From: an uncultured Acidobacteriota bacterium | GTDB taxonomy: Bacteria > Acidobacteriota > Vicinamibacteria > Vicinamibacterales > 2-12-FULL-66-21 | Length of the DNA: 64,000 nt | Direction of reading: 5' to 3' | Assembly (NCBI GenBank): GCA_963771395.1 | Contig: CAVYTY010000023.1 | Coordinates: 250,964 to 314,963 of the forward strand | Shown here: one piece after another, positions 15,786 to 60,104 of the stretch | How positions within the stretch are numbered: the first letter of the stretch is position 1 | How the letters are laid out: each line of letters begins with the position of its first letter | Notes under the pieces: generated by a model | Database searches by the model: none | Told to the model about the DNA's origin: nothing | What the model saw: the letters and a program-made list of their open reading frames with translations, nothing else | Made by a program: the position numbers and the translations under genes

Positions 15786-15928
15786 GGTTCAAAGGGTTCA
15801 AGAGGTTCAAAAAAAGGTTCAGGGGGTTCAAAAGGTTCAAGAGGTTCAGGGGGTTCAAAAGGTTCAGGGGTTCAAGGGGTTCAAAGGGTTCAGGAGGTTC
15901 ATGAAGGTTCAGAGGGTTTCGGGGTTCG
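15786..15928. repeat. family-A array A1: 14 GGTTCA + 2 degenerate units, dominant 9-bp period, purine spacers
   Basis: Unit starts read at 15786, 15795, 15804, 15816, 15825, 15834, 15843, 15852, 15861, 15869, 15878, 15887, 15896, 15906, 15915, 15923. Confidence 0.95.
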
Positions 15929-16042
15929 CTGTTTTTGCTATTCGGCCGAAGGCGCGCGTTCGCAGATTCTGAAACGATCCTGGCGGGTCGCCCGATATTC
16001 TGAGCAAATCCGCGCGGCATGCTGCGTGCTCCGCGCTTCTGC

Positions 16043-16438
16043 ATGGTGGCCGCTCGGACATTCGAGGAGCTGGATGCCTGGCAGCTGTCCAGTGAGCTCC
16101 GCGACACGATCTTCACGTTGACTGAAACGGGACCTGTTCTCAAGAACCTCAAGTTCCGCGATCAGATACGGGAGTCGTCGAGCTCGCCGCCCGCAAACCT
16201 GTCGGAAGGGTTCGGCCGTTTCAGGCCGCGCGAGTTCGCGCACTATGCGCGAATCGCGCGCGCGTCACTCCTCGAAACGCGCAACCATCTCTTGGATGGG
16301 CGAACGAAGAAGTACTTGAGCGAGGAAGACACCGCCCGCCTCCTCAAACTTCAGGTGCGAGCGACGATAGCAACAACCAGACTGCTCAGATACCTCGAGT
16401 CCTGCAAAGGCAAGCCGCCCACAGGCTGGACGTACTGA
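16043..16438 (+). CDS. four-helix-bundle protein (23S rRNA intervening-sequence protein family, Avd-like)
   Basis: FEELDAWQLSSELRDTIF...PPANLSEGFGRFRPREFAHYARIARASLLETRNHL fits the PF05635/TIGR02436 pattern. Its TGA stop is the first unit of array A2. Confidence 0.85.
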   Translation: MVAARTFEELDAWQLSSELRDTIFTLTETGPVLKNLKFRDQIRESSSSPPANLSEGFGRFRPREFAHYARIARASLLETRNHLLDGRTKKYLSEEDTARLLKLQVRATIATTRLLRYLESCKGKPPTGWTY

Positions 16439-16582
16439 ACCGCTTGAACCTCTCTGAACCTGCCCTGAACCCCTGAACCCCTGAACCTCCTGAACCTCCT
16501 GAACCCCCTTGAACCTCCTGAACCCCCTGAACCCTCTTGAACCCTCTTGAACCCTCTTGAACCCTCTTGAACCTCCTGAACT
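16436..16582. repeat. family-A array A2: 15 TGAACC + 1 degenerate units, inverted relative to A1, pyrimidine spacers
   Basis: Unit starts read at 16436, 16445, 16455, 16466, 16474, 16482, 16491, 16500, 16510, 16519, 16528, 16538, 16548, 16558, 16568, 16577. The array ends at the TAA of the M28 gene. Confidence 0.95.
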
Positions 16583-18072
16583 TACTTGCGCGGCAGCCGT
16601 TCGTCGCGCATCGAAGCGTTGTAAGCAAAGACGGCGATGACCGTGGCCTGCTGGATCATGTCGTCGGCCTGCACGCGATCGAACGTGTCCATGTTCGAGT
16701 GATGCGTGCGCGAGTTGTATTCGAGCCGGTCGACCATGAACTGAAAGGCGGGCAGGCCGACGGCGTCGAACGAGACGTGATCGGTCGAGGTCACCGAGCG
16801 GGGTCCGATCGCGAACACGCCGAGATCCTCGAGCGGCTCCATCCACTGCCGGAAGATCGGCTCGACGGCGGCGTTGCCCTGCAGCCAGATCCCTCGCACG
16901 CGACCGGTACCGTTGTCGGAGTTGAAGTACGCCGACAGCTTCTCGTGCGCCGGTGTGCGTGTCGTCGTCGCCGGATCGCCGTAGTGTTCGCGGACGTACG
17001 CGCGGGAGCCCAGCAGGCCTTCTTCTTCGCCGCCCCAGAGTCCGATCCTGATCGTCCGCCTCGGCTTCGCGCCCACGGTCGTGAGGATGCGCAGGGCTTC
17101 CATCATCGCAGCCGAGCCCGTGGCGTTGTCGGTTGCGCCCGTGCCTGCCGCCACTGAGTCGAAATGCGCGCCGAGCATCACGATTTCGTCCTTCAGCACC
17201 GGATCGCTCCCGGGCATCTCCGCGATGATGTTGAATCCGTTGTCCGTCGTTTCGTCATGGAACTTCGTCTGCACGTTGAGCTCGACTTTCACGGGCACAC
17301 CCTTGCCGAGGATCCGAACGAGGCGGTTGTAGTGTTCGACTGCGAGCGTCACGGTGGGCAGCCCGGTGCCGGCATCGGGGCCGCGCGATCCGCTGCCGGT
17401 CGGGAAGATCGTGCCGCCGTCGGGCCGCTGCTGACGCCACGACATGTCGCTTCCACCAGCGGACATGTCCGAGTCGCTGCCGCGGTTGAAGAGCGCGACG
17501 ACACCTTCGGCCTTGTAGAAGGCCTGCAGTCTCTGTTGAAAGCTGGCGGCCTCTCCTCGGCTGCTGCCGCGTCCTCCGCGCCCCGCGCCGGCTCCCCGAC
17601 CCGCGGGGACGGTGGCCGCTTCTTCAAAGTCCTTCTCCGTCATGCGTAGGACGAACGGCCCTTCGAGCATTCGCACCTCGCGCGCCGGCTGTGTGAGGAC
17701 GATCTTGCCTTTGAGCGTGCCGCGGTACTTTTGAAAGTCCGCGTCGTTTTCGATCTGCACGCGGGCGACGTCGGCAACGACGACGCCGTTCGTGCCCGAG
17801 GTCCATGAACCTGGAAAGCCGATGAGCGGCTCGATTTGCGGTTCGACGAGATGCGCGCTGAACCGCACGAGCGACCAGCCTTTGCCAAACGGAAATGTCT
17901 CGAGGTGGGGATTTGCGAGGCCCCACTCGGCAAACTTCTCGAGCGTCCAGTTGGCGGCCTGTCTGATGCCCGGGCCGCCAGTCAGCCGCGGCCCGTAGAC
18001 GTCGCTCAGCCAGCTGATGTGATCCATGACCCGGGATCGCTTCAGTCCCTCGTCGCGGATCTTCGCGATCAT
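16582..18072 (-). CDS. M28-family aminopeptidase
   Basis: 496-aa ORF with GAHFDSVAAGTGATDNATGSAAMMEALR and GLWGGEEEGLLGSRAY metal-ligand regions. The candidate signal peptide lies upstream in other frames (see findings). Confidence 0.85.
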   Translation of the reverse strand: MIAKIRDEGLKRSRVMDHISWLSDVYGPRLTGGPGIRQAANWTLEKFAEWGLANPHLETFPFGKGWSLVRFSAHLVEPQIEPLIGFPGSWTSGTNGVVVADVARVQIENDADFQKYRGTLKGKIVLTQPAREVRMLEGPFVLRMTEKDFEEAATVPAGRGAGAGRGGRGSSRGEAASFQQRLQAFYKAEGVVALFNRGSDSDMSAGGSDMSWRQQRPDGGTIFPTGSGSRGPDAGTGLPTVTLAVEHYNRLVRILGKGVPVKVELNVQTKFHDETTDNGFNIIAEMPGSDPVLKDEIVMLGAHFDSVAAGTGATDNATGSAAMMEALRILTTVGAKPRRTIRIGLWGGEEEGLLGSRAYVREHYGDPATTTRTPAHEKLSAYFNSDNGTGRVRGIWLQGNAAVEPIFRQWMEPLEDLGVFAIGPRSVTSTDHVSFDAVGLPAFQFMVDRLEYNSRTHHSNMDTFDRVQADDMIQQATVIAVFAYNASMRDERLPRK

Positions 18073-18243
18073 CGAGAGGTCGAGCTTTTCGGCAATGGGG
18101 CTGGGCGCGTGGGATGGCGATCACCCCGAGCATCAGACAGACACACGACAGACAGACGCTTCATGAGCAGGCTCCAGAGAGAGCTTCCATGCTTAGCAGC
18201 CCGTCGCGTTGACACTCGACTGTGGCTGCGGGTCGGCGTTGCT

Positions 18244-18334
18244 GGGTCATCCATTTTCTAATGCGTGCGCGGAAGCCGCTCACTCGACGAGAAAATCGAG
18301 ATTTGACCCCGGTCAACCGCAGTTGACGGCCTCG
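18244..18334. repeat. hairpin element F, copy 1 (degenerate stem)
   Basis: gggtcatccattttctaatgcgtgcgcggaagccgctcactcgacgagaaaatcgagatttgaccccggtcaaccgcagttgacggcctcgc aligns along its length with 22558-22654. Confidence 0.8.
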
Positions 18335-18422
18335 CGGCTTCATCAAGCTGCCCTCTATACCAGGTGTCAGCAAATGCTCGGGGATGCGCTATCGTAAGGG
18401 AGGTTCGCGAACCGCCCTACCC

Positions 18423-19535
18423 ATGTCCATGATGCACCCCATTTTGAGCGCGGCGCTCCTGCTGTTGCTCTCCCAGACGCCAAAGCCTGCGGTCCCGTTT
18501 ACGACGCCGTTGACGAAGGCCGAGATGGCCGGGAAACAGGCCGTCGTGGCAACCAGCGCCGGCACGTTCGTCATCGACCTGCGGCCGGAACTCGCCCCCA
18601 ATCACGTCGGTTACTTCATCAAGCTGGCGAAGGAGGGCATCTACGACGGCACGACCTTCCATCGTGTCGTGCGTCTCGGCATCATTCAAGGCGGAGATCC
18701 TCTGTCGAAGGACCCGGCGAAGATCAAGCTGTACGGCACGGGCGGGCTGGGCATCCTCAAGGCCGAAATCAGCAGCGAGAAGCACACGAGGGGTGTGGTA
18801 TCGGCCGTCCTCCAGCCCGGCCGGCCCGATAGCGCGGGGTCGCAGTTCTTTGTCGCGGTGACCGATCAGCCGGCGCTCGACGGCAAGTACACGATCTTCG
18901 GACGCGTGTCCGAGGGGCTCGACGTCGTGCAGAAGATTTCCGAAGTTGCCGCTGACGAGAGAGGCGCACCGGCCGAGCGCGTCGAGATGCGCAGCGTGAC
19001 CATCCGCGATACGCCGCCGCCGGAACCAGAGCCGTTCGCGACCGAGTCGTCCGCGGACCTCGCGAAGTATCGGGCGGCCCTCGAGACGTCCGCCGGCTCG
19101 ATCACAGTCGAGCTCCTTCCCGACAAGGCACCCGAGCACGTGCGCAACTTCCTGCGGCTGGCCTCGGCCGGAGTCTTCGACGGCACGGCCTTTCACCGTG
19201 TCGCCCGGGGATTCGTGATCCAGACCGGCGCGCTGACGTCGCGTGGCCCGTTGACCGAGAAGCAGCAGAAGTTGGTTCGGTCGCTGCAACCGGAGTTCAA
19301 CGACACCAGGCACGTGAAGGGCATCCTCTCCATGGCCCGCGGCGACGACCCGGCGAGCGCATCCACGTCGTTCTTCATCGTCACTGGTGATGCGCCGTCG
19401 CTTGATGGTAAGTACACTGTGTTTGGCCGCGTGGTCGAGGGGATGGCCGTCGTCGAGGCCATCGAGCAGTCGGCGGTCAGCGGCGAGGCACCCGTCCAGC
19501 GCGTCGACCTGAAGTCCGTTCGCGTCCTCAAATAG
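18423..19535 (+). CDS. secreted tandem cyclophilin-type peptidyl-prolyl isomerase
   Basis: Two cyclophilin domains (FHRVVRLGIIQGGDP...GSQFFV and FHRVARGFVIQTG...STSFFIV) after a hydrophobic signal segment. Confidence 0.9.
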   Translation: MSMMHPILSAALLLLLSQTPKPAVPFTTPLTKAEMAGKQAVVATSAGTFVIDLRPELAPNHVGYFIKLAKEGIYDGTTFHRVVRLGIIQGGDPLSKDPAKIKLYGTGGLGILKAEISSEKHTRGVVSAVLQPGRPDSAGSQFFVAVTDQPALDGKYTIFGRVSEGLDVVQKISEVAADERGAPAERVEMRSVTIRDTPPPEPEPFATESSADLAKYRAALETSAGSITVELLPDKAPEHVRNFLRLASAGVFDGTAFHRVARGFVIQTGALTSRGPLTEKQQKLVRSLQPEFNDTRHVKGILSMARGDDPASASTSFFIVTGDAPSLDGKYTVFGRVVEGMAVVEAIEQSAVSGEAPVQRVDLKSVRVLK

Positions 19536-19587
19536 CAACTGCGTCGCCGAGAGCCGGAACGCCGCGCACGGCGTCAAAAGGCCGGGA

Positions 19588-20838
19588 GTGCATATGAAGA
19601 GTCTTCGAGATCTCAACAGGCTGTCTGCAGCCTTTGCCACCGCCATCCTCTTTGTGGCCCTGCCGGCGGTCGTTTCGAACCGCACAGCGGACGATTGGCC
19701 ACAATGGCGCGGGCCGAACCGCGATGGTCGGTCGGCGGAAACGGGACTGCTGAAAGACTGGCCGGCCGGTGGGCCGCCGCTCGCCTGGCGGACGACGGGC
19801 GCCGGGGAGGGCTATTCGTCGTTTGCGACCTCCCAGGGCCGGCTGTTCACGCTCGGGGCTCGGGGCGGTACCGAGTATGTGGTGGCCTTCGACGCGGCCA
19901 GCGGCAAGCGTCTGTGGGAAACAGCCCACGGGTCCCGGTTCAGCAACGACCGCGGTGATGGGCCTCGCGCCACTCCCACGATCGAAGGCGATCGCGTCTA
20001 CGCGTTTGGCGCGAGCGGCGATTTGAGCGTGCTCGATGCGGCAAGTGGCAAGGTGCACTGGACTGTCAACGTGCTCAAACAGTACCGAGGTTCGAACATC
20101 CAATGGGGGCTGAGCGAATCGCCTCTCCTGCTGGAAGATCGGATTCTCCTCAATGCCGGCGGGACGATCGTCGCGCTCAAGAAAACCGACGGCAGCAGGA
20201 TCTGGACGACCCAGGGCGACGAAGCGGGCTACTCGTCGGCAGTCCATCATCAGTCCGGCTCTATCAACGAGGCGATCTTCTTCACGAGCCGGCAGGTCTT
20301 GGGCGTCGACGTCAACAGCGGCCGGCGGCTGTGGAGCTATGGTCCGGTCGCCAATAACACCGCCAACATCGCGACGCCGATTGTGCGCGGCAACCGTGTG
20401 TTCGTGTCGTCGGCCTACGGTACCGGGGGGGCCCTGCTCGAGCTGACGGCGTCAGGCAGCAACGTCACTGCCAAAGAGGTCTACTTCACCCGTCAGATGA
20501 TGAACCACCATGCAACGTCCGTCCTTGTGGGCGAGCACCTGTATGGGTTCAACAACGCCATCCTCACGGCGCTGAAGTTCGACACGGGGGAGGTCGCCTG
20601 GCAGAACCGCAGCGTCGGCAAGGGTTCACTGACCTTTGCCGACAATCGACTGTATTTGTACAGCGAAGGCGGGGTTGTCGGGCTGGCCGAGGCGTCCCCG
20701 AAGAGCTACGTCGAGCACGGCCGTTTCGAGCTCAGGACCGGCCGCCTCCCCACGTGGAGCCATCCCATCGTGTCGGGAGGCAAGCTCTTCCTGAGAGATC
20801 AGGACGTTATCTATGCCTACGACGTCCGCGCCAAGTAA
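19588..20838 (+). CDS. PQQ-like beta-propeller repeat protein, secreted
   Basis: DWPQWRGPNRDGRS entry motif followed by repeated propeller-blade-like segments. Confidence 0.8.
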   Translation: MHMKSLRDLNRLSAAFATAILFVALPAVVSNRTADDWPQWRGPNRDGRSAETGLLKDWPAGGPPLAWRTTGAGEGYSSFATSQGRLFTLGARGGTEYVVAFDAASGKRLWETAHGSRFSNDRGDGPRATPTIEGDRVYAFGASGDLSVLDAASGKVHWTVNVLKQYRGSNIQWGLSESPLLLEDRILLNAGGTIVALKKTDGSRIWTTQGDEAGYSSAVHHQSGSINEAIFFTSRQVLGVDVNSGRRLWSYGPVANNTANIATPIVRGNRVFVSSAYGTGGALLELTASGSNVTAKEVYFTRQMMNHHATSVLVGEHLYGFNNAILTALKFDTGEVAWQNRSVGKGSLTFADNRLYLYSEGGVVGLAEASPKSYVEHGRFELRTGRLPTWSHPIVSGGKLFLRDQDVIYAYDVRAK

Positions 20839-20846
20839 CCATCAGC

Positions 20847-20928
20847 GGGGACACTCAACCGGGACAGTCCCCGGGGACACTCAACCGGGACAGTCCCCAG
20901 GGACACTCAAGGTTGAGTGTCCCCGGGG
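20847..20928. repeat. family-C array C1: 2 x GGGGACACTCAACCGGGACAGTCCCC plus a palindromic variant GGGACACTCAAGGTTGAGTGTCCC
   Basis: Units at 20847-20872, 20873-20898 and 20899-20928. Inner palindromes GGGACAGTCCC and CCCCGGGG. Confidence 0.9.
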
Positions 20929-20997
20929 TGATTCGAGCCATAATGGAGGCGTGGCTTGGTGCCATTCGGAATTAAAGAAGGGTAAACGGGAAGGGTT

Positions 20998-22539
20998 TTG
21001 GCAGACACACGACTGAAGATTGCGGTTTTCATCGACTTCGACAACATTGAAATCGGGGTCAAGAGCACGCTCGGCGTGCAGTTCGATATCGGGGTCGTCC
21101 TCGAAGCACTGAAGGAACGGGGCGACGTCGTTTCCAAGATCGCCTATGGCGACTGGACACGCGCCGGGGACTACAGCCGATCGCTGACGCAGCACGCGAC
21201 CAAGCTGGTGCAGCGCAACCTCACCCCGGGCGGCGACAAGAACGGCGCCGACATCAATCTGGCGCTCGACGCCCTCGAGATGGCGTTCACCCACGGCCAC
21301 ATCAACGCCTACGTCATCGTCGGCGGCGACAGCGATTTCATCAGCCTCGTCGAGAAGCTCAAACAGTACGACAAGCAGATCTTCGTGGTTGGCGGGCGGG
21401 CGTTCACCAGCCTGGTGATGCAGCGCAACTGCCACGAATTCATCGCCTACGAGAACCTCGTCAGCTCACGCCGTACCCAGGACCGCGGGCAGAAGAGCGC
21501 GCCGGCGACGACACAGCAGGCGCCGCTCGATCAGGTGGTGCCGCTCGTGCGCCGCGCGCTCAAGGTGCTGGTCGATCGCGAGGTTACGCCGCAGCTCGGC
21601 CTGCTCAAGAGTACGCTCCTGCAGCTCGATTCCACGTTCTCCGAGCGTACGTATGGCGCGGGCAGCTTCCGTGATTTCGCGCAGAAGCTTGCCGCGGCGG
21701 GGCACGTCGTATTGCGCGAGGCCGGCCGCAACGTCCTCGTGGAGCTCAGCGACAATGCGCTCGTGACCTCCGCCGTCCCTTCGACCGGGTCTGCGCAGGC
21801 GTCTTCGACGAGCCCCTCGACAAGCTCGGGTCAGAGCAGCGAGGAGCCATGGTCGCGGCAGCAGCAAACAGCGCCGCCGTCACCCGAGCCGTTGACGCGC
21901 GAGACGGCGCCCGTCAACGGGAGCGGTCGCGCCGCTGATGGCATCCGCGAGATCCGCCGCCTGTTTCAGACGGCGCAGCGGCCGCCGCGCTGGCCGATGT
22001 ACATCCGACAGTTGAAGCAGTACCTCCGCGCGGTCGACGCGGCGTTCGATGAGCGCAAGTACGGGTTCGAGACGCTCGGTGATCTCATGCGGGCGTGTCA
22101 GCGCGACGGGCTGCTGCGAATCGAGCGCGATCGTCAGGGCGGGATGCGGATCTTCCCAGGCACGTTGACGGCGCCTGCCGGCGATCCGGCGCCCATGCTC
22201 GACGAAGGTGACGCGCAGGAAGCTGGCGGCTGGGTCCCACCTGTCGATACGTCGAGCGAGCCCGAGGTCATCGAAGGAGACGTCCTGCATGAGATCGACG
22301 TGCCGCAGGTCATCGACGCCGAGGTGACGACGCCGCCGCCCCCAGAGAAACCGTCGCGCCGCCGTCCACGCGCGGCGAAGACCGTTCGACCGACCGGCGA
22401 GGGGCGCGCGCCACGGAAGTCGCCCGACGCACCCGCGGCGCGGAAGGCCGCCGACGGAGCCCCGAAAACGCGAAAGCCGGCCGCCCCGAGGCCGCGTTCC
22501 GCCCGCAGCCGCCCGCGCACCGACGTCCCCCAGGGTTAG
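20998..22539 (+). CDS. NYN (LabA-like) domain protein with two OST-HTH/LOTUS-like domains and a Pro/Ala/Arg-rich tail
   Basis: KIAVFIDFDN...GADINLALDALEMAF...YVIVGGDSDFISLVEKLKQYDKQIFVVG is the NYN core. Two later segments (GLLKSTLLQLDSTFSERTYGAGSFRDF and IRQLKQYLRAVDAAFDERKYGFETLGDL) look like OST-HTH. TTG start. Confidence 0.8.
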   Translation: MADTRLKIAVFIDFDNIEIGVKSTLGVQFDIGVVLEALKERGDVVSKIAYGDWTRAGDYSRSLTQHATKLVQRNLTPGGDKNGADINLALDALEMAFTHGHINAYVIVGGDSDFISLVEKLKQYDKQIFVVGGRAFTSLVMQRNCHEFIAYENLVSSRRTQDRGQKSAPATTQQAPLDQVVPLVRRALKVLVDREVTPQLGLLKSTLLQLDSTFSERTYGAGSFRDFAQKLAAAGHVVLREAGRNVLVELSDNALVTSAVPSTGSAQASSTSPSTSSGQSSEEPWSRQQQTAPPSPEPLTRETAPVNGSGRAADGIREIRRLFQTAQRPPRWPMYIRQLKQYLRAVDAAFDERKYGFETLGDLMRACQRDGLLRIERDRQGGMRIFPGTLTAPAGDPAPMLDEGDAQEAGGWVPPVDTSSEPEVIEGDVLHEIDVPQVIDAEVTTPPPPEKPSRRRPRAAKTVRPTGEGRAPRKSPDAPAARKAADGAPKTRKPAAPRPRSARSRPRTDVPQG

Positions 22540-22557
22540 TCAGTTCGGCGTTTGCCT

Positions 22558-27274: not shown

Positions 27275-27424
27275 GGTTCAGAAGGTTCAGGAGGTTCAAG
27301 AGGGTTCAGAAGGTTCAATCGTTGCTCGCACCTGAATTTGCGAGCTCGCGCCTTCGGCCGAATGGCAAAAACAATGAACCCCTGAACCTCCTGAACCTCT
27401 TGAACCTCGTGAACCCCCTGAACC
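27275..27424. repeat. family-A composite A3: 5 GGTTCA units (27275-27317), 57-bp core, and 6 TGAACC units (27375-27424)
   Basis: Unit starts 27275, 27284, 27293, 27303, 27312 and 27375, 27383, 27392, 27401, 27410, 27419. The core is homologous to the leader of the 16-kb four-helix-bundle gene. Confidence 0.9.
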
Positions 27425-31391: not shown

Positions 31392-31613
31392 ACACGGATC
31401 GCAGCGATTCACGGATCAATGGACGCGGATCACTCGGGTCACAGATCGACGGGACGCGGATCACACGGATCAACAGATCAACGGGACGCGGATCACGCGG
31501 ATCAACAGATCAACGGGGACGCGGATCACACGGATCGACAGATCAACGGGACCGCGGCTCACGCGGATCACAGATCGACGGGTCGCGGCTCACGCGGATC
31601 GCAATCGCGAGCA
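31392..31613. repeat. family-B array B2: six direct about 32-bp units (GGGACGCGGATCACNCGGATCAACAGATCAAC) plus degenerate lead-in
   Basis: Unit starts at about 31421, 31453, 31485, 31518, 31550, 31582. About 16 GATC sites in about 220 bp. Confidence 0.9.
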
Positions 31614-49966: not shown

Positions 49967-50072
49967 TGGACGCGGATCGTCTCAACGGGACGCGGATCTC
50001 GGAGACATATTTCAACGGGACGCGGATCTCGCGGATCGACATTCTCACGTGACGCGGATCTCGCGGATCACA
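49967..50072. repeat. family-B array B3: four direct GACGCGGATC(TCGCGGATC) units
   Basis: Unit starts at about 49969, 49989, 50019, 50051. About 7 GATC sites. It fills the gap between two convergent stops. Confidence 0.85.
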
Positions 50073-51436
50073 TCATGCCGCCTCCCGGGCTTTTCGGTAG
50101 CGTCGGCGTCGTCTGGGGGGCCGCCGGCGGCTTGAGCGTGTAGCGATACGCCTCGATGAGCCATGCGCCGGTGCGCTTCAGCACGAGCGTGACCTGCCCC
50201 TCCATCCTGGGCGTTGGTTTTCCGGACGAATCCAGAACACCGCTCAGTTCCCACTTCCCGTCGGCAACAGCGATGTCCTCTGAGAGACAGCGGATCCTGT
50301 TCAGGGCGAGCGGATGCTGCGACGAGCGGTACTCACGCCGTCTGAAGAGCTGCATGCGGTTGATGGTGATCATCTGCGCGCCCCGTTCGATTGCGCCGTC
50401 CGGGTGGATGATGTCCCCGCCCTTCGACCACAGCGCGCCGAGTTTCTCATAGTCGTGATTGGCCCAGTGGACATAGAACCGCTGCCGAGCGCCGCGATCG
50501 CCCGTTCGTCGCCGGCCGAGCATCGTTCCAGAGGGTCTGGCGCAGCGGCTGCTGAAGTTGTCGCCTCGACGCGTGGCGGTTCCGCCACGGGCGGTGGCGT
50601 GCTCGATCGCGTCGGCAGCGGCGCAGTTCTCAGGGCGGCGATATCCTGCAGGATGCCGCTCGACGAGCGCTTCGACGAACACCCGTCCCTTCTCTCGCGT
50701 CGCGCGCGTCGGATCGCCCCAGGTGCCAGTCGGCGAGTAGGTGCCCGTGCCGCCGCGCTGCCGGGTGAGTCGGCCCCCGCCAGGCGAGGGGGTGTAGTCC
50801 TTGACGGCCTTTCGTCATGTCGACGCTCGACGGATCGATGTAGAGCATCATCGAGGTCTCGACCTCGTCGGCATGCGTCCCGCCTTCCTGCTCGATGAAA
50901 CCCTTGGTCGCAGGATCGAGCCGGCTGCCGAGGTTGGTGTAGCGCATCAGCACGCCATCGGACGCGAGGAGAGCCACCGCGGGGTCGAGGGCGCGTACTG
51001 TCGAGACTCCAGTGTTGAGGACATAGAAACGGCGAGGGCCGTACGCCGACAGCGTCCGGACGACATCGGCGGTCATGTCCCTGGCGGTGGCAAGCGACAG
51101 CGACGTGGAGCCGGGATACTCGAGGAACGCCGGATAGAAGTGATAGGTCAGCGTGGGTGCGACGACAACGGCGGTCGCGTCGACCACGCGCTGTGTCAGA
51201 TAATCGGCGAGCGTCAGATCGTTGCGCAGCTTCAGATGCGGTCCGTGCTCCTTGCTGCCCGCGCCGAGCGGGATGAGGACAACCGTCTCTGGCGTGAGCG
51301 CCGGCTCGGCCTCCTGCCACGTCAGCGATTCGAGCCGCACACTCTTTTCGAGCGGGGCCGGACTGCGGCTCTGACGAGCGGAGGGCGTCGTGGAGAGCCC
51401 CAGGACACAAACAAGCGCGAAGATCTGCAGGCGCAT
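50068..51436 (-). pseudogene. creatininase-family domain fused via a Pro/Ala linker to a SnoaL/DUF4440-like domain; three frame changes (about 50807, 50655, 50480)
   Basis: ...EVETSMMLYIDPSSVDMTK / AVKDYTPSPGGGRLTRQRGGTGTYSPTGTWGDPTRATREKGRVFVEALVER / ILQDIAALRTAPLP...AGDERAIAALGS / RFYVHWANHDYEKLGALW... Confidence 0.6.
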
Positions 51437-51486: not shown

Positions 51487-51713
51487 GTGCAGAGGGTGCT
51501 AAGGTGCCCGGTGCTTAGGGTGCCGGGGTGCCAAGGTGCCCGGTGCCTGGTGCTTAGGGTGCCACGGTGCAAGGGGCCAGAGTGCCAACGGCGTTGGCGC
51601 GTTGTCCGTGACCTGGCACGCTCCGCACCCCAGCTAGGCACGAGGCACGGGGCACGCTTGCACCCCGGCACCCTAAGCACCAGGCACCGAGGCACCTTGG
51701 CACTTTAGCACCC
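51487..51713. repeat. family-D composite: about 11 GGTGCY units (51487-51573), about 40-bp core, and inverted GGCAC/GCACC units (51613-51713)
   Basis: ggtgctaaggtgcccggtgcttagggtgccggggtgccaaggtgcc... is mirrored by ...ggcaccctaagcaccaggcaccgaggcaccttggcac. Confidence 0.9.
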
Positions 51714-51719
51714 TGATAT

Positions 51720-52559: not shown

Positions 52560-54376
52560 CCCCACCGGTTCCGTACGTCGAGAACGCCGCGCGCCACGCC
52601 AGGGACGGCGAAAAGGAGGCGCAGCTTTCGAAAGTGATCGCGCGGCTGCGGCTGACGACCTTCCTTGTCGCGCGCGGCGATTCTCGTGTGGTCGCTCTCG
52701 CACGGCGGGACGCGGTTGCAGCTCTGGACGGCCTTCCTGCTGTTCGTTGTGTTCGGCGTCCTCGTTGTCTGGCACGCCCGCGTCGACGAGCGCGTGGCCT
52801 GGCACGGCGCGCTGAGGCTGGTGAACGTGCGGGCGCTGGCTCGTCGCGCGCGCGACTGGCCTGCGCTGCCCGACGCGGAGGCCCCTACGGGCCTCGATCT
52901 GGAGGATCACCCCTACGCGCTCGACCTCGATCTCTTCGGGCGCGCATCGCTCTTTCAATGGCTCGGTCCCGCGGCGACTCCTCGTGGACGCACGACGCTC
53001 GCGACGTGGCTGCTCCGTCCCTCACCTCGCGCGGAGGTGATCGAGCGTCAGGACGCCGTCGCGCAGTTGGCGGCGCTCGATGACTGGCGCCTGACGTTCG
53101 ATGCCCACGGCGTGCTCGCCTCGAGTGCCCGGCAGAACGAGATCGACTGGTTCCTCGCCTGGGCCGAAGGGCCCGATCTCTTCGGCCGGAAGACAGGTCT
53201 CCTTCGAGCCGTTGTCCTCCCGCTCACCGGGGCGTTGTGGATCCTTATCGCCGGCGAAGTAACCGGCTGGATGCCGATCGGTCTCTGGCCCATTCCGATG
53301 GTGGCCGGCATCGTCCTGTCGTTTGCCACGGCCGAGCGCCTTCAGCAGACGTTCAATCGCGCCGGAGCCGGCCAGTCTGCGCTCGGCCGTTACGCGGGGC
53401 TCTTCGAGCACGCCATCACCGCGCCGGCTGCTTCGTCGCGCCTCCAGGCCCTCCTCGACAGGCTGTCGGCAGAGGGACAGCCAGCACCAGCATGCATGCG
53501 CCGGCTGAATCGGATCGTCGGGTTCGGCGAGCTGCGGCAGAGCTCCGATCCTGCATTTTCCCGTGCAGGCGCTGACTCTGTGGGATTTCCACGTGCTCTT
53601 CGCGCTCGAGCGGTGGCGGCGGACGAGCGGACGCCGGGTCAGAGTCTGGCTCGACGCCCTGGGCGAGCTCGATGCGCTCGGGCGGCTCGCGCACTGCGCG
53701 TCGCGACAATCCCGAGTGGGCCGTCCCATCGTTCGGGCCTGTTCGGCGAGGTGACGGCGGCCGGCATCGGCCACCCGCTCATCTCTGACGATCGGCGCGT
53801 CGCCAACGACGTCACGGTTGGTCCGGCCGGAACGGTCCTCCTCGTCACCGGGTCGAACATGTCGGGGAAGAGCACGCTGCTCCGCTCGATCGGTCTCAAC
53901 ATCGTGCTCGCCCAGGCGGGCGGCGTGCGTCTGCGCGCGACAGATGTCCCTGCCCGAGTGCGATCTCCAGACGAGCATCAGCGTGCACGACTCGCTCGAG
54001 CGCGGCCTGTCGTACTTCATGGCCGCCCTCGCGCGCCTCAAAGGCGTCGTCGACGCGGCGCAGCACGAGCGCCAGGGACGCGATGCTCGTGTATCTGCTC
54101 GACGAGATCCTGCAGGGCACCAACAGCGTGGAGCGGAGCATCGCCGTCCGCGCGGTGACGCGCCATCTGCTCGAGGCCGGCGCCATCGGCGCGATGACCA
54201 CGCACGACCTCGGTCTCGCGGAAGAAGAGCCGATGAAGAGCGCCGCGCAGTTCGTCCACTTCTCGGAGACGTTCGACGCGGACGGCACGATGCGATTCGA
54301 CTACGCGCTGAAGCCGGGCCTGGCCACGTCGCGCAACGCCTTGCGGCTGATGCAGATGATTGGGATCGAGCTGTGA
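52556..54376 (+). pseudogene. MutS-related (MutS domain V ATPase, membrane-anchored) gene with about six frameshifts
   Basis: The GTG overlaps the methyltransferase stop. The sense hops frames at about 52670, 53543, 53700, 53735, 53915 and 54080. It contains LVTGSNMSGKSTLLRSIGLNIVLAQAGG, SVHDSLERGLSYFMAAL and LLDEILQGTNS. Confidence 0.7.
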
Positions 54377-54478
54377 CAGTCGGCAGTCGGCAGTCGTCGG
54401 AATCGAGAGTCACAGTCGTCAGTCTCAGTCGACGGTCAGAGTCGACAGTCAGAGTCGACAGTCAGCAGTCGACAGTCA
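54377..54478. repeat. family-E array: CAGTCGG / GTCGACAGTCAGA units, direct
   Basis: cagtcggcagtcggcagtcgtcgg...gtcgacggtcagagtcgacagtcagagtcgacagtcagcagtcgacagtcacg. Contains four GTCGAC palindromes. Confidence 0.85.
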
Positions 54479-54564
54479 CGCGCTCAGCGGCGAAAAGCTC
54501 TGCGCGCATGACGGATTTGTTTCGACGAGAGTGCCTCGGATTGGTAGGAAGGTCCATACTGTTG

Positions 54565-56180
54565 TTGGCGCCAGTGCTTAGTCGACCCCGCTTCATCGTC
54601 TTCCTGTCGGTCCTCCTCTTGCTCGGACAGCGTTCCGGCCGGCCAGGGCCAGCCGCGATATGACCTGCTGATCGCCGGCGGTCAGGTCGTCGACGGCACC
54701 GGCGCTCCGGCCCGGCGGGCGGATGTCGCGATCAAGGCCGGGCGCATCGCGGCCATCGGCACCATCGCGAAGATCGACGCGCGGGAGGTGATCGACGCTG
54801 CCGGCCTCGTCGTCGCGCCGGGTTTCATCGACGTCCACACCCACGCCGACGACCTCATCGACCAGCCGCGTGGCGAGAACTTCGTCCGCATGGGCGTCAC
54901 GACCATCGTGGCCGGAAACTGCGGCTCGTCTTCTCTCGATGTCGGCAAGGCGTTCGACGGCGGTCGAACAGGTCGGCGCGTCGGTGAACTTCGCGACGCT
55001 CATCGGGCACAACACGGTGCGTCGTGACGTGATGGGGACTGCGAACCGCAACCCGACGATTCCCGAGCTCGACAAGATGAAGGCGCTCGTCTGGCGCGGA
55101 ATGGCGGACGGCGCCGTAGGCTTCTCAACCGGCCTCCAGTACGTGCCAGGCACCTATGCCCAGACGTGGGAGATCATCGAGCTCGCGCGCGTCGCCGGCA
55201 ACGAAGGCGGCGTGTACGCCTCCCACATGCGCAACGAGGGCACGGCGCTCGAAGAAGCCGTCACCGAAACGATCCGCGTCGGTGAGATGGCGGGCTGCCG
55301 CGTGCAGATTTCTCATCTGAAGGTCGACAGCCCCAGCCGCTGGGGTGCGAGCGCGAAGGCACTTGCGCTCATCGACGATGCCCGGAAGCGCGGCATCATC
55401 GTCGAGGCAGACCAGTATGCGTACACGGCGGCGAGCTCGTCGCTCGGCATCCGCTTCCCCTCGTGGGTGCTCGAAGGCGGTCAGGCGCAGATCAACACGC
55501 GCCTCAACGACGCGGCCATGTGGGCGAAGATCAGGAACGAGATCCGGGCGCTGCTCGCCGAGCGCGGCCTCGCGGATCTGTCCTTCGCTGTCGTGGCGTC
55601 ATATCGTGCGGATCCCTCGCTCAACGGCTTGTCGATGAAGCAGGTGGCGGCAAAGCTGAAAGGGACGGAGTCAGCCGAGGCGCAGCTCGAGGCGGCGCGG
55701 GAGATGATGCTCGCCGGTGGGGCATCGATGGTCTATCACTTCATGTCCGACGACGACATCGATCGAATCATGAAGCACCCGCAGGTCGCTGTCGCGTCGG
55801 ACAGCTCGGTGCTGACGATGGGGGAGGGCGTGCCGCACCCGCGCGGCTACGGCAACAACGCAAGAGTGCTGGGCGAATACGTGCGCGTGCGGAAGGTGAT
55901 CACTCTCGAGGAAGCGGTCCGCAAAATGACGTCGCTCCCCGCGGATCAGTTTCGATTCGCTGAACGCGGCCGGATCGCTGCGGGCGATTTCGCAGACATC
56001 GTGGTCTTCGATCGCGCGACGGTGGGGGACGCGGCGACATTCGACAAGCCGCACGCGTACGCGCGCGGCATCGCCTATGTCCTGGTCAATGGTGTGCCCG
56101 TCATCAAGAACGGTGAGCACACCGGCGCGAAGCCGGGAAAGGCGCTGACGTTGGGGAAAGCACAGACGCCCAAGCGCTGA
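54565..56180 (+). pseudogene. second D-aminoacylase-family gene, two frameshifts (about 54640 and 54955)
   Basis: Signal-like RFIVFLSVLLLLGQ / YDLLIAGGQVVDGTG...PGFIDVHTHADD...GNCGSSSLDVGKAFD / AVEQVGASVNFATLIGHNTV... to the end. Confidence 0.7.
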
Positions 56181-56261
56181 ACCCTGAACCCTTGAACCCT
56201 CTGAACCTTTTTGAACCCCTGAACCGTTTGAACCTTTTGAACCCTCTGAACCTTTTGAACC
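56178..56261. repeat. family-A array A4: 10 TGAACC units
   Basis: Unit starts 56178, 56185, 56193, 56202, 56212, 56220, 56229, 56238, 56247, 56256. The first unit contains the stop codon of the preceding gene. Confidence 0.95.
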
Positions 56262-56276
56262 CTGTTTAATCATCCG

Positions 56277-56795
56277 TCAGTCATCAGCCACAGCGAAATA
56301 GATCGCGACCGGCGCGAGCACGAGCCACACGCCAATCATCAGCGCGGGCAGCATCCAGCCGCCCGCGAGCAACGCCGAGGGCGCCTTGATGGCCGCCATG
56401 TCGGACGATGCGGCGTCCCTGACGCCGGAGACCCATCCGCCGAGCAGGCCCCCGAACCAGGGTGACAGCGCGACGAGCGCGGCGACGGTCAGCGTGATTG
56501 CGGCCACCGAGGCCACCACCTGCGCGACAGTGATCGGCCGCGCGGCTTCCCGCGCCGCTTCCTGACGCGCGCGCATCTGCGCCCGCCACCACATCACCGC
56601 GGACGAGGGGATCCGCGCGTCACCGGGTTCGTCGTTCCGGTCGTCGAGCAGCGCCCCCGCGACGTCGACGACGTCGGCGCACAGTGCGCACGCGGCCACG
56701 TGGGCGCGGAGGTCCTCGCCGGCCCGGCCGGGCCAGCGCCCGCTCGTCAGCGCATCGAGCACGTCCTGCTCACGACAGCAGTCAACGATCTTCAC
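56277..56795 (-). CDS. membrane anti-sigma factor (zf-HC2 type)
   Basis: HVAACALCADVV zinc-finger motif plus C-terminal transmembrane helices. The ATGA overlaps the sigma-factor stop. Confidence 0.8.
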   Translation of the reverse strand: MKIVDCCREQDVLDALTSGRWPGRAGEDLRAHVAACALCADVVDVAGALLDDRNDEPGDARIPSSAVMWWRAQMRARQEAAREAARPITVAQVVASVAAITLTVAALVALSPWFGGLLGGWVSGVRDAASSDMAAIKAPSALLAGGWMLPALMIGVWLVLAPVAIYFAVADD

Positions 56796-57379
56796 GAGTG
56801 GCCTCCGTCGGTATGCGCCGCCGCAGGACGCAGTATCCCCGCGAGCTTCCGCCGCGCGCGGAACAGCAGGAGCTTCACGCTCCCGGTCTTGACTCCGAGC
56901 GTCTGGGCGATTTCGGTGTGCGGATGACCCTGCGCATACGCCAGCCAGAGCAACGCCCGCTCGCGCGGCCGCAGGCGATCCATCGCCCGCCGCAGATCGG
57001 TGCGCCGGACGCTGGCCTCGGCAAGGTCACCACCAGTCGCGGGAATAGTGCTCTGATCGTGGTCCGGCAGCGGCACGGTGTGCCATCTCCTGGCGCGTCT
57101 GCGGCCGTCCCGCACGAGGTTGGTGGCGATCTGGAAGAGATAGGCACGGCGGTGCGACTCGCTTTCCCAGTGGCCGCGCGTGCGCAGGAAACGGTAGTAG
57201 CTCTCCTGCAGCAGGTCGTCGGCGACTTGCGCGTCGCACGTCATCCTGGACAGGTAGTTCCAGAGCGACCGGGCGGTTCGGTCGTAGAACGCGCGGAACG
57301 CTTCTTCGTCCATCTCGAAGGCCACGTCGACCTCTGCAGCCTCGAGCCGTTCAACGTCGGAGAACGTCAGATCGCGCAT
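56792..57379 (-). CDS. ECF sigma factor
   Basis: FRAFYDRTARSLWNYL...DLLQESYYRF (region 2) and LLWLAYAQGHPHTEIAQTLGVKTGSVKLLLFRARRKL (region 4). Confidence 0.9.
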   Translation of the reverse strand: MRDLTFSDVERLEAAEVDVAFEMDEEAFRAFYDRTARSLWNYLSRMTCDAQVADDLLQESYYRFLRTRGHWESESHRRAYLFQIATNLVRDGRRRARRWHTVPLPDHDQSTIPATGGDLAEASVRRTDLRRAMDRLRPRERALLWLAYAQGHPHTEIAQTLGVKTGSVKLLLFRARRKLAGILRPAAAHTDGGHS

Positions 57380-57383
57380 GTCG

Positions 57384-58325
57384 TCACTGTCCCGCGCCTT
57401 CGATGTGCTCGCGCGGCGGAACGGCCACGGCCGGTTCGAAGAGGCCGAGCCGCCGCGAGAGGAGGAATGACGCGCCGGCCGACACGACGAAGCCGGCGCC
57501 AACCGCCAGCGCGAGCACCCCGATGGAGAAGAGCGGCTGGGCCACTTCTTCGAGCACGCGGTTGCTCACGAAGAGCAGCCCGAGCCCGAGGGCGGCGAGC
57601 ACGACACCGATCTGCACGGACCACAAGATGCGGCTCAAGGGCGCACCGACCTGTCGCACGGGAGCCGCGGGAGCCTCGAGCGACAGCGGCGCCGATTCCA
57701 GGAATCGGCGGCCCACGGGGGTCTCCATGTAGGCCAGCAGATCCTCGTTGGTCGTAAAACGATCCAGCAATTTCTTGTGCACCTCGTTATGGACCTTTGA
57801 CGTGCGATTCCACCGCCTGTATTCGACGAGCGTTCGGATGATCCAGATCAATGCGCCGGTGCCGACGAGGAAAACGCCCGAGATGGCGAAGAAATCGAAG
57901 AGATCGCGCCAGACGCGCACCGCCTGCGATTCCCGCGTCTCGGGCGGCGAGGGGACCCAGAATTCCATCGGCCCGATGTGCTCGAAGAAGAAGCCGGGAG
58001 AGCTGCGGATGTCGGGGTGCTGCTTCAGAAACGCCGCGAGGCCCGGGTACGGGGCCAGGTAGGACTCGTTACTCAGGAGCGACGGGTCGGTCCGCAGGAC
58101 ACGGCCAACCGCGGGCGGAAGCTTCTTGAGGAGCTCCTCGAGGCTTTCCCGCGTCTCCCTGGCGTCCTGGTCCTGGTTGATGAACACCTGCGGGGCCGCT
58201 GGGGTAGCTCCGGGACGCTCGACCGGCGCGACGGCACCCTGCTGAGCCGAGGCCAGGTTCGGGACCGACAGGGCGAGAACGAGGGCCGCGAACGCCGAGC
58301 GGGTCGAAATCCGGTAGGAAAGCAT
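57384..58325 (-). CDS. membrane protein of unknown function, first gene of the ECF sigma operon
   Basis: Signal peptide plus three to four transmembrane helices. No family recognised. Confidence 0.6.
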   Translation of the reverse strand: MLSYRISTRSAFAALVLALSVPNLASAQQGAVAPVERPGATPAAPQVFINQDQDARETRESLEELLKKLPPAVGRVLRTDPSLLSNESYLAPYPGLAAFLKQHPDIRSSPGFFFEHIGPMEFWVPSPPETRESQAVRVWRDLFDFFAISGVFLVGTGALIWIIRTLVEYRRWNRTSKVHNEVHKKLLDRFTTNEDLLAYMETPVGRRFLESAPLSLEAPAAPVRQVGAPLSRILWSVQIGVVLAALGLGLLFVSNRVLEEVAQPLFSIGVLALAVGAGFVVSAGASFLLSRRLGLFEPAVAVPPREHIEGAGQ

Positions 58326-58396
58326 TAGTAAGTAGGCTCCTTACCTACACCTACCTACTACGCACCGGACCGATGGGGGTTAACACTGACAGAGTC

Positions 58397-58499
58397 GGTT
58401 CAAAGGGTTCAAGGGGTTCAAAGGGTTCAAAGGTTCAGGGTTCAGGAGGTTCAGGCCATGAACCTTGAACCTCTGAATCCTACCTGAACCCTTTGAACC
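58397..58499. repeat. family-A composite A5: 7 GGTTCA units abutting 5 TGAACC units around a 5-nt centre
   Basis: Unit starts 58397, 58406, 58415, 58424, 58432, 58439, 58448; centre ggcca; then 58459, 58466, 58474 (degenerate), 58485, 58494. Confidence 0.95.
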
Positions 58500-58507
58500 G
58501 ACTGGAT

Positions 58508-58933
58508 TCAGTAAACAGTCCAAATCCCCGGCGACGCCAGCTCGAGGATGTGTCCTTCCGGGTCACGAAAATAGAGGCTGCGGCCGCCGAGGTCCCACCG
58601 GCGATCGCGCTCGATGGTCACGCCGTGTGCGTGGAGTCTGGCCGCCCACGCGTCCATATCCGACTCGGCCGTTGAGAAAGCGATGTGCTGCGGGCCAGTC
58701 GCGTCGTGCGGAACATCGGCGAGGTTGGTCGAGGCGCCGCGCTTGCACACCAGCAGCACCTGCCTGCCGCCGACGCCCATCGCCGTCAGGCGCTCGTCGA
58801 GCGCGATGGTCTCGAAGCCGAGAACGGTCCCGTAGAACCGCACCGCCCGGGGCACGTCCTCCACGTACAGCGCTACTTCGACGATGCCGCCAACGCTGGG
58901 TGCGGTGGAGATGGCGGGTGTACCATGTCTCAA
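58508..58933 (-). CDS. VOC/glyoxalase-family protein
   Basis: IVEVALYVEDVPRAVRFYGTVLGF...HIAFS...LYFRDPEGHILEL. The proposed TTG start overlaps the aminotransferase stop (TTGA). Confidence 0.7.
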   Translation of the reverse strand: MRHGTPAISTAPSVGGIVEVALYVEDVPRAVRFYGTVLGFETIALDERLTAMGVGGRQVLLVCKRGASTNLADVPHDATGPQHIAFSTAESDMDAWAARLHAHGVTIERDRRWDLGGRSLYFRDPEGHILELASPGIWTVY

Positions 58934-60048
58934 TCGAACAGCGGCGTCAGCTCGCTCGCAATGCGCCGTAAGCCCTCGCGAAGGAACTCCTCGCGGCCGC
59001 CGAGCCAGATTCGCAGATAGCCTTGGAGCCCGACGTGCGATCCGGGCACGATGAGCGTGCTCTGATTGACCCGCACGCGTTCGGCGACGTCGAGGCTGTT
59101 GATGTCCGCATCGTACCTCACGAGCGCGATGGCTCCGGCCTGTGGCTCGCGCCAGGTGAGCCGTCCACCGAGGCGGCCGATCCACTCGCGGGCGATGGGA
59201 AGGTTGTGGGTGAGGATGGCTCGCGTGCGCGCATAGCAGCGCTCGCGATTCTCCGGCTCGACGGCGACGCGCGCGAGCCGGTCGGACAGCTTGTTGGGCC
59301 CGATCGTGAGGTAGTCGTGCTGCGACCAGCACTCCGATACGAGCGCGCGCGGGCCGACGATCCATCCCACGCGGACGCCGGGAATCCCATAGGCCTTCGA
59401 GAGGCCGCTCGTGACGATCACACGGTCGCTCAGTCCCCAGAAGCTCCTCGTGCGATCACCGTCGATCTCCGCGCCGAGATACACCTCGTCGGCGAGAATC
59501 CACGTGTTCGTGGACTCGCACCGGCTCACGATCCGTTCCATCGCGCTCGGCGAAAGGATCGAGCCGGTTGGGTTGTTGGGGTTCGAGAGATAGAGCAGGC
59601 GCGCCCGAGGTGTCACCGCGCGGTCGAACTCGTCCCAGTCGGGCTCCCAGCCCGTATCGTGTCGCAGGGTAAACGTTCGAACAGTCGCGCCGAGGCTGCG
59701 CGCAACGCCTGGCATCTGCATGTAGTTGGGCACTTCCATGGCCACCTCGTCGCCCGGCTGGAGCTGGCTCAGGGCGATCAGGTAGTTGGCTTCGGAGGTG
59801 CCGTTGGTGACTTCGATCTGCTCGACGTCCGCGCCCGGGTAGATAGCCGCGAGGCGCTCACGGAGCTCGATCGTGCCGTTCGACTGACTGTAGCCGAGCG
59901 GCTGATCCATGAAGGCGTCGAGGTCGAAGCCCATCTCGACAAGCTCCCGGAGCGTCAGCGGCCGCACGCCGCTCTCGCTCATGTCGTAGTCGACGAGGTT
60001 CTCCCAGGTCGACTGCATGCGCTCCATCGCAAATGGTTCAAGAGGCAT
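58930..60048 (-). CDS. PLP-dependent aminotransferase (class I/II)
   Basis: 372 aa with NPNNPTG and SGLSKAYGIPGVRVGW (the PLP-lysine region). Confidence 0.9.
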   Translation of the reverse strand: MPLEPFAMERMQSTWENLVDYDMSESGVRPLTLRELVEMGFDLDAFMDQPLGYSQSNGTIELRERLAAIYPGADVEQIEVTNGTSEANYLIALSQLQPGDEVAMEVPNYMQMPGVARSLGATVRTFTLRHDTGWEPDWDEFDRAVTPRARLLYLSNPNNPTGSILSPSAMERIVSRCESTNTWILADEVYLGAEIDGDRTRSFWGLSDRVIVTSGLSKAYGIPGVRVGWIVGPRALVSECWSQHDYLTIGPNKLSDRLARVAVEPENRERCYARTRAILTHNLPIAREWIGRLGGRLTWREPQAGAIALVRYDADINSLDVAERVRVNQSTLIVPGSHVGLQGYLRIWLGGREEFLREGLRRIASELTPLFD

Positions 60049-60104
60049 TGATTTGGTTCAAGAGGTTCAAGAGGTTCAGGTGGTTCAATAGGTTCAAGGG
60101 TTCT
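60035..60104. repeat. family-A array A6: 6 GGTTCA + 1 degenerate unit spanning an intra-operon spacer
   Basis: Unit starts 60035, 60055, 60064, 60073, 60082, 60091, 60099. The outer units lie inside the flanking coding sequences. Confidence 0.9.

Follow-up and report, generated by a model that had tools for sequence, protein, structure and literature searches.

Inverted GGTTCA repeat arrays enclosing an IVP-family gene, and their gene-less relatives, in an uncultured Acidobacteriota bacterium

In this study, we analysed a 64-kb window (the whole stretch of DNA under analysis, from contig CAVYTY010000023.1 of an uncultured Acidobacteriota bacterium; positions are numbered on the whole stretch throughout) and found that two runs of the hexamer GGTTCA, at 15786-15928 and 16436-16582, are inverted arms enclosing a gene of the family of 23S rRNA intervening-sequence proteins (IVP; PF05635). 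Together they form a cassette with the layout (GGTTCA-RRR)n, leader, IVP gene, (YYY-TGAACC)n. Decay products of this cassette, comprising internally deleted foldbacks, bare hairpins, and solo arms, are also present in the window, whose GGTTCA arrays form three inverted pairs, of which one bears the gene and two are gene-less, and two solo arrays. We consider it probable that the arrays are the inverted arms of a selfish cassette resembling an intervening sequence (IVS), that the arms pair in RNA, and that IVP recognises the repeats.

The two strands of the window together carry 96 copies of GGTTCA, whereas dinucleotide shuffles gave 20.4 ± 4.9, with a maximum of 34. The eight runs given below account for 66 exact copies, and the other 30 lie elsewhere, at about the chance level.

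15786-15911, + strand: exact GGTTCA run 1
16436-16573, - strand: exact GGTTCA run 2
27275-27317, + strand: exact GGTTCA run 3
27375-27424, - strand: exact GGTTCA run 4
56178-56261, - strand: exact GGTTCA run 5
58397-58453, + strand: exact GGTTCA run 6
58459-58499, - strand: exact GGTTCA run 7
60055-60096, + strand: exact GGTTCA run 8

These counts bear out the arrays reported in the initial annotation of this DNA. The spacers between cores are 1 to 6 nt long, with the single exception of a 13-nt gap, and the modal length of 3 nt (36 of 58 spacers) accounts for the dominant 9-bp period that had been described; Tandem Repeats Finder recovered identical arrays, with periods of 9, 10, and 18. Read in the GGTTCA sense, the spacers are 96% purine (A 83, G 82, C 4, T 3), whereas the window is 50% purine. 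The initial annotation had counted six loci and roughly 75 units. Arrays are indeed present at these loci, but the loci are not independent, as 15786 and 16436 belong to the two arms of one cassette, and the unit at 60035 lies within the coding sequence of an aminotransferase gene, whose start is placed at 60048 because its homologues are 372 aa long; the figure of 75 is reached only when degenerate units are included. The single unit in front of the multicopper-oxidase start, to which attention had also been drawn, falls within chance expectation.

All of the GGTTCA arrays are intergenic, and their ends lie 0-16 nt from a neighbouring stop codon (genes were called by a GC3-based caller with relaxed thresholds, which gives reliable 3′ ends and over-long 5′ ends, and 'inside gene' calls near a 5′ end were counted as intergenic). 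In three genes, encoding IVP (16436), an amidohydrolase (56178), and a PALP-domain protein (60094), the first TGAACC unit supplies the actual TGA stop codon. Because the GGTTCA sense contains no stop codons, as had been noted before, long spurious open reading frames (ORFs) traverse the arrays, for example at 15589-15972 and 15760-16152 of the window, and in relatives gene callers lengthened or broke up ORFs there. Matching arrays are carried by independent assemblies of the relatives L044, L194, L195, L196, L199, and L218 (L-numbers are labels of related DNA stretches), and arrays occur in independent short-read and long-read assemblies; they are therefore no assembly artefact. A scan of the window detected no Rfam family (rRNA included) and no tRNA.

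The gene-bearing cassette is made up of four parts.

15786-15928, + strand: 5′ arm with 14 exact GGTTCA units and two degenerate units (GGTTTC, GGTTCG)
15929-16042, + strand: leader from the 5′ arm to the IVP start, near-identical in L194 and partly kept in L195 and L218
16043-16438, + strand: IVP gene of 131 aa, encoding a PF05635 23S_rRNA_IVP / TIGR02436 four-helix-bundle protein
16436-16582, - strand: 3′ arm with 15 exact units (TGAACC on the + strand) and one degenerate unit

The cassette is bordered by a multicopper oxidase gene, 2 nt past whose stop codon the 5′ arm begins, and by an M28 peptidase gene, at whose stop codon the 3′ arm stops; the TGA of the IVP gene is itself the first TGAACC unit of the 3′ arm. 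The assignment of the protein rests on matches to PF05635 (E = 1.5e-20), TIGR02436 (E = 5.4e-18), and the structure PDB 2GSC (E = 8e-14), and PF05635 is present in 80 of 80 database homologues, most of which are 131-133 aa long. The gene is under purifying selection (dN/dS 0.07-0.16), and the IVP motif S-x3-N-[IL]-[AS]-E-G is invariant. The arm segments 15793-15878 and 16470-16555 are 71% complementary, and RNA folding predicts that the 831-nt element pairs its arms around the ORF (-410 versus -304 ± 6.6 kcal/mol, z = -16). A tblastn search revealed no second IVP gene in the window, and terminator-like sites in the cassette occur only at the chance level.

The remaining GGTTCA arrays of the window have no IVP gene between or beside them.

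27275-27424, - strand: gene-less foldback with arms of 5 + 6 units and a 57-nt loop (27318-27374)
58393-58503, no strand assigned: bare hairpin with 7 + 4 units in its arms and a tip of 5 nt
56178-56261, - strand: solo arm of 10 units occupying the whole gap between two convergent genes, its first TGA being the amidohydrolase stop codon
60055-60104, + strand: solo arm of 5 exact units and 1 degenerate unit, the PALP stop codon being a TGAACC unit

The loop at 27318-27374 identifies the origin of the first of these. The first ~40 nt of the cassette leader persist in it (40 nt, 90% identical) and are joined to a 19-nt internal piece of the IVP gene (95% identical) in reverse orientation; the locus 27275-27424 therefore derives from a full cassette by internal deletion. 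When IVP debris was sought in other foldback loops (58454, 51588-51635, L085, L089, L109, and L002), only matches to repeat units were obtained. The palindrome of the bare hairpin reaches 4 nt past the arrays (AGTC...GACT). Predicted folding of the gene-less copies gave z = -7.8 and z = -9.5, the latter for the bare hairpin, and no U-tract follows the hairpins. The PALP and aminotransferase genes, both of which are on the - strand, are 45 nt apart, and the solo arm at 60055-60104 sits between them. Between the 58397 hairpin and the aminotransferase gene there is a glyoxalase-family gene (58508-58900) that is absent at that position in L196-L199, which makes it a gene-sized presence/absence difference adjoining a foldback.

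Comparison with relatives revealed that the cassette occupies different loci and can lie in either orientation. For one housekeeping gene, the closest named homologues come from Vicinamibacteria, and a pattern scan of species genomes returned at least 113 stretches; among the matches listed, about 30 were from metagenome-assembled genomes of Acidobacteriota/Vicinamibacterales. L195 is collinear with the window (84-88% nucleotide identity) and has a cassette in the same position, its arms numbering 11 + 9 units and its spacers (cag/taa/tag/cg) being unrelated. The IVP genes of the window and L195 differ by a dS of 0.68, yet 20 of 20 cores are intact. In L194, the IVP is 96% identical in amino acids over the 131-aa ORF, the arms have 19 + 12 units, and the flanks are unrelated, so that the DNA common to L194 and the window is the element only, from arm end to arm end. 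In L218, the orthologous oxidase-peptidase site holds the cassette in inverted orientation. A more distant IVP (46% identical) is found in L044 between GGTTCA arms with CGG/CAG/CGA spacers, and L085 and L089 have GGTTCA arms with TGG/TGA spacers. Paired GGTTCA arrays were convergent in 11 of 11 cases (the GGTTCA arm 5′ of the TGAACC arm) and divergent in none.

The turnover of arrays at orthologous positions was followed at three sites in four relatives (L196-L199), whose aminotransferase is 85-92% identical. The site corresponding to 60055 holds TGAACC arrays with different spacers in two of them, a different repeat (CTGACGACTC...) in one, and nothing in one. The site of 58397 (orthologous to window 58326-58929) holds GGGATCA/TGATCCC foldbacks in L196, L198, and L199 and nothing in the fourth relative, and that of 56178 holds other repeats or nothing. 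Arrays thus differ strongly among close relatives, by insertion, replacement, or in-place growth, with the core constant. The view in the initial annotation that the arrays look less like slippage microsatellites than like recognition sites holds in that the 6-nt core is invariant while spacers and arrays turn over fast.

Arrays were found together with IVP both in relatives and in other phyla. Eighty metagenomic loci were collected whose IVP is 35-55% identical to the window protein; 62 of them had both flanks available, and these we scored for a 6-mer repeated at least n times upstream with its reverse complement at least n times downstream, using 420 random controls. An inverted score of at least 3 was reached by 48 of 62 IVP loci and 6 of 420 controls, and a score of at least 4 by 37 of 62 and 0 of 420, respectively; direct (non-inverted) repeat sharing was rare (5 of 62). 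The repeat units at these loci are 7 to ~24 nt long and have cores such as GGTTCN, CGTTCG, GGTGCN, GGTCCA, GTGCT, and TCGAAA. The type of core agreed with that of the nearest neighbour in IVP protein sequence in 57 of 60 cases, a concordance reached in 0 of 2000 permutations. The architecture is thus family-wide, and repeat core and IVP clade segregate together.

Two further groups of loci show the same arrangement outside the metagenomic sample. Homologues of XCC0516, the IVP type with a known crystal structure, in Xanthomonas, Dyella, and Lysobacter (L200-L215) all lie between accB and accC, in the order accB, four GGGAATC-like heptamers, IVP, four GATTCCC-like heptamers, accC. In these 4 + 4 arms, every 7th position is consistently unpaired; covariation between arms comprises an apparent double change from A-U to G-C, together with some G.U positions, among only four distinct sequences, too few to separate RNA pairing from homogenisation at the DNA level. 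Plasmid-borne IVP genes of cyanobacteria and Riemerella (the hosts being Nostoc, Calothrix, Anabaena, Geminocystis, Leptolyngbya, and Riemerella) have arrays upstream in 8 of 8 cases and on both sides in 6 of 8, with the units GGGAACA, GGGTGTR, GGTGACA/GGGAACA, RAGGGAA, GGAGA-rich, and GGTTYAA. Each of them is co-directional with its neighbours in a short intergenic gap, e.g. Cas6-IVP-Cas4 or ParA-like-IVP-ParB. In the Anabaena sp. 90 plasmid pANA02 (L226), ~40 alternating GGTGACA / GGGAACA heptamers stand upstream of IVP, between cas6 and cas4. IVP genes have been reported inside cas operons (PMC3936711), and arrays like that of L226 might contribute to the reported links between IVP and CRISPR-Cas loci.

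In every case examined, the purine/G-rich arm is upstream on the IVP sense strand. The association of arrays with IVP was seen in four phyla; the search for phage carriage yielded two weak IVP relatives in viral contigs, neither with clear arrays. In the open-access full-text collection that we searched, we found no paper linking IVP or four-helix-bundle genes to flanking tandem repeats, and the new part of our work would be this cross-phylum link between IVP and repeat arrays.

GGTTCA is not the only repeat family of the window. A sister family is represented by one further feature.

51493-51712, no strand assigned: gene-less foldback with GGTGCC units in the 5′ arm, GGCACC units in the 3′ arm, and purine-rich spacers

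L216, a related contig of 3 Mb, carries an IVP paralogue (41% identity to the window IVP) between (GGTGCC-R)n and its complement. Given this foldback and the paralogue belonging to its repeat, several families, each with its own IVP, coexist in the lineage. Directly after a stop codon, tandem GACAGTC / GTCGACAGTCAGA units occupy 54375-54479; the heptamer is similar to GACAGAT, which is repeated upstream of S23p in the Coxiella IVS, and the array includes AGTCGTCAG, the reverse complement of the CTGACGACT repeat found at an orthologous site in L198. A unit of ~32 bp (GGATCACGCGGATCACAGATCAACGGGACGC-like) forms three arrays, at 11422-11490 (in the opposite orientation), 31409-31600, and 49980-50073. 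These may be a further family, since IVP-cassette arms with units of 12-24 nt exist (L118, L134, L135, and L150). A partly palindromic 26-bp unit (CGGGGACACTCAACCGGGACAGTCCC) forms arrays at 20846-20910 and 63020-63076, and the alignment of the window with L195 breaks around the former, where window 20837-20990 (~150 nt) faces L195 14761-14862 (~100 nt).

Taking the cassette as a selfish intervening sequence, we envisage that it would reside in transcribed intergenic gaps. Transcription, by read-through or from the cassette itself, would produce an RNA whose arms are zipped into a long periodic stem with the IVP ORF looped out, and the purine-only and pyrimidine-only spacers would permit the arms to pair in any register. 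Looping-out, as in the RNase III-excised IVSs of 23S rRNA, would allow the host to tolerate the insertion. That IVP reads the repeats is suggested by the combination of a conserved core and free spacers with the pentameric, nucleic-acid-binding Avd-like fold: a pentameric IVP could read the repeated core, one core per subunit, with the short spacers left free. In so doing, IVP may maintain or propagate arrays in trans, much as RAYT relates to REPINs, and slippage would alter the number of units. The initial annotation had likened the arrays to recognition sites, a reasonable proposal, but it had overlooked that the arms are inverted around a gene.

A number of observations weigh against this interpretation. 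The big arms are only about 71-77% complementary and their spacers are not mirrored; the stem would therefore be a succession of 6-bp helices with small internal loops between them, unlike a classic substrate of RNase III. A solo arm, for its part, cannot fold into a hairpin. A search of the cassette and leader for a sigma-70-like promoter found none. No target-site duplications are evident at occupied versus empty orthologous sites, the array termini are ragged, with variable unit number and no fixed ends, and the presence of different repeat families or of nothing at orthologous positions fits generation or replacement in situ as well as insertion. Simple linkage could account for the co-segregation of core and clade. 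We know of no catalytic activity of IVP, and only in Xanthomonas are GGGAATC arrays reportedly dispersed, even though the cassette is also retained by Dyella and Lysobacter; IVP alone may not be the driver of dispersal.

Of the other explanations, the one that survives best, although we regard it as unlikely, is that the arrays are hairpins serving the host at the 3′ ends of genes, as terminators or mRNA stabilisers of a REP-like kind, and are generated and kept by the host independently of IVP, whose gene would be a parasite landing in hairpin tips. The arrays do abut stop codons and fill 3′ intergenic space, the foldbacks are predicted to fold strongly, one orthologous site can host different repeat families, and IVP genes are known from the tips of rRNA helices. 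However, the core follows the IVP clade although several array families share one genome, a gene-less foldback contains IVP gene debris, and the 4 + 4 heptamer arms remain with IVP in Xanthomonas, Dyella, and Lysobacter. The hairpins, moreover, are not followed by a U-tract, and neither the solo arms nor the operon-internal array at 60055 would terminate transcription.

We think it quite unlikely that the arrays function as DNA, as iteron-like binding sites or as non-B-DNA (cruciform or quadruplex) acting on replication, recombination, or the nucleoid, with IVP as a DNA-binding partner. Such a function would agree with the formation of G-quadruplexes by the GGGAATC repeats of Xanthomonas (PMC4692102), with the inverted cassette in L218, which fits recombination between arms, and with a spacing of 7-10 bp, near a helical turn. 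Against this, GGTTCA-RRR has no regular G-runs, so quadruplex formation is not general. The polarity of the arms relative to the IVP gene is fixed, the purine/G-rich arm always standing upstream on the sense strand, and all eight plasmid IVP genes as well as the Xanthomonas gene are co-directional in operon-like gaps. The fixed polarity and co-directional placement together indicate a role at the level of the transcript.

The initial annotation had also read the arrays as tandem Shine-Dalgarno-like (GGAGG) or anti-Shine-Dalgarno-like (CCTCC) strings, which might bind 30S subunits or sequester Shine-Dalgarno sequences. There are 28 such Shine-Dalgarno-like strings in the window, arising where GGA or AGG spacers are followed by GG. 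Homologous GGTTCA arrays with CGG, CAG, TGG, or TAA spacers have few or none, conservation lies in GGTTCA and not in the spacers, which differ in L044, L195, L085, and L089, and the IVP arms built on other cores (GGGAATC, GGGAACA, CGTTCG, and GGTGCC) lack the motif, so we hold this explanation to be very improbable and do not retain it. Least credible of all is that the arrays are neutral slippage microsatellites or assembly artefacts near IVP by coincidence: unit number does vary among relatives and higher-order periods of 18 and 27 bp indicate slippage, but the excess of inverted arrays at IVP loci over controls, the association of arrays with IVP in four phyla, the core left invariant at a dS of 0.68, the fixed convergent polarity, and the recovery of arrays from independent short-read and long-read assemblies leave it almost no room.

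If the selfish-cassette interpretation is true, it would join the IVP/S23p family, which is widespread and of solved structure but has no known function, with the unexplained excess, in several phyla, of short intergenic tandem repeats and of their convergent inverted pairs. The link between IVP and arrays would also explain IVP genes as intruders in rRNA, cas, acc, and plasmid operons. Arrays of this kind give rise to spurious ORFs, to stop codons of real genes, and to hotspots of difference among close relatives, and are therefore relevant to annotation and strain typing of soil Acidobacteriota.

Among known systems, the IVSs of 23S rRNA that carry S23p/IVP (Leptospira, Ralph & McClelland 1993; Coxiella, PMC4990558) share the PF05635 family with the window cassette, and in both an ORF is enclosed by inverted repeats pairing into a stem, in our case by prediction. 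In Coxiella, strain-variable tandem heptamers (GACAGAT) stand just upstream of the S23p ORF of the IVS, and its terminal stem is cut by RNase III (PMC4990558). IVSs of rRNA are regarded as selfish and horizontally moving, and IVP genes have been reported within such rRNA insertions, in the tips of rRNA helices. There are also differences. An rRNA IVS is inserted in a 23S/16S helix tip, whereas the window cassette lies between protein-coding genes; the arms of the latter are arrays of a 6-nt core plus spacer (5-19 units) instead of a unique 28-bp stem; and, unlike rRNA IVSs, the window type of cassette has many gene-less copies elsewhere in the genome.

Intergenic heptamer repeats form a second group, which includes the STRR heptamers of cyanobacteria, said to have been described by Mazel et al. 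in 1990. Rehm et al. 2015 (PMC4692102) reported intergenic heptamer simple sequence repeats (SSRs), GGGAATC in Xanthomonas and GGGGAYT in Nostoc, with ~186 intergenic sites of GGGAATC in X. campestris, 70 of which are convergent pairs. They explained the heptamers by G-quadruplexes, the formation of which was shown for GGGAATC, found no associated mobile element, and did not mention XCC0516 (PMC4692102). In our comparison, it is this published GGGAATC heptamer, in inverted arrays, that flanks the XCC0516-type IVP gene of Xanthomonas. Heptamer SSRs and STRR resemble the GGTTCA arrays in their short tandem units, strictly intergenic position, variable copy number, and frequent convergent inverted pairs. 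They differ in the unit, which is a 7-nt G-rich, G-quadruplex-forming one in the SSRs, whereas GGTTCA with 1-6 purines gives a 9-bp period that is not prone to quadruplex formation; G-runs appear in GGTTCA arrays only where the spacer happens to be GGG.

Other systems share single features with the cassette. Like MITEs, the GGTTCA elements include an internal deletion derived from a gene-bearing parent (the loop at 27318-27374), but their array ends are ragged and they have neither junction duplications nor a transposase. Their long inverted arms of short tandem repeats, variable in number and with or without a central coding loop, recall the FB and Galileo foldback elements of Drosophila; FB elements are eukaryotic. 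CRISPR arrays have repeats of 23-50 nt with unique spacers of similar length, in contrast to a 6-nt core with spacers of 1-6 nt. IVP and the Avd protein of diversity-generating retroelements (DGRs) have been described as homologous pentameric four-helix-bundle proteins (PMC10053308), the solved IVP relative being 2GSC. Avd binds nucleic acid and a reverse transcriptase, but no reverse transcriptase and no template/variable repeat pair were found beside the IVP gene, reverse transcriptases having been sought at the cassette neighbours only. The ring protein TRAP binds 11 (G/U)AG triplets separated by 2-3-nt spacers. By analogy, its sites may be likened to the arrays in having a conserved core, free and slightly variable spacers, a C-poor strand that is unstructured alone, and a homo-oligomeric ring as partner.

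In layout, the cassette is also comparable to the REPIN/RAYT system, reportedly described by Bertels and Rainey in 2011. In both, a gene is flanked by inverted short repeats, gene-less singlets and inverted doublets occur in intergenic regions, the type of repeat matches the clade of the protein, and inheritance is largely vertical. The likeness does not go beyond layout, as RAYT is a Y1 HUH transposase and the flanked gene here encodes a PF05635 four-helix bundle, and as the REP sequence is an imperfect palindrome of ~20-40 nt whereas the GGTTCA unit is non-palindromic and tandem, with units of 6-9 nt; the initial annotation was right in not assigning the arrays to the REP/BIME families. As a tentative extension, to which we give less than even credence, IVP may be the trans-acting partner of a phylum-spanning class of repeat elements, in which cassettes with a clade-specific unit of 6-9 nt would seed intergenic arrays and foldbacks, known for a long time as an over-representation of heptamer SSRs or STRR without explanation in Xanthomonas, cyanobacteria, and Acidobacteriota, and each subunit of the pentamer would read one core in RNA or single-stranded DNA. 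Such a class would represent a second, mechanistically different counterpart of REPIN-RAYT, possibly moved or maintained via an RNA stem-loop intermediate.

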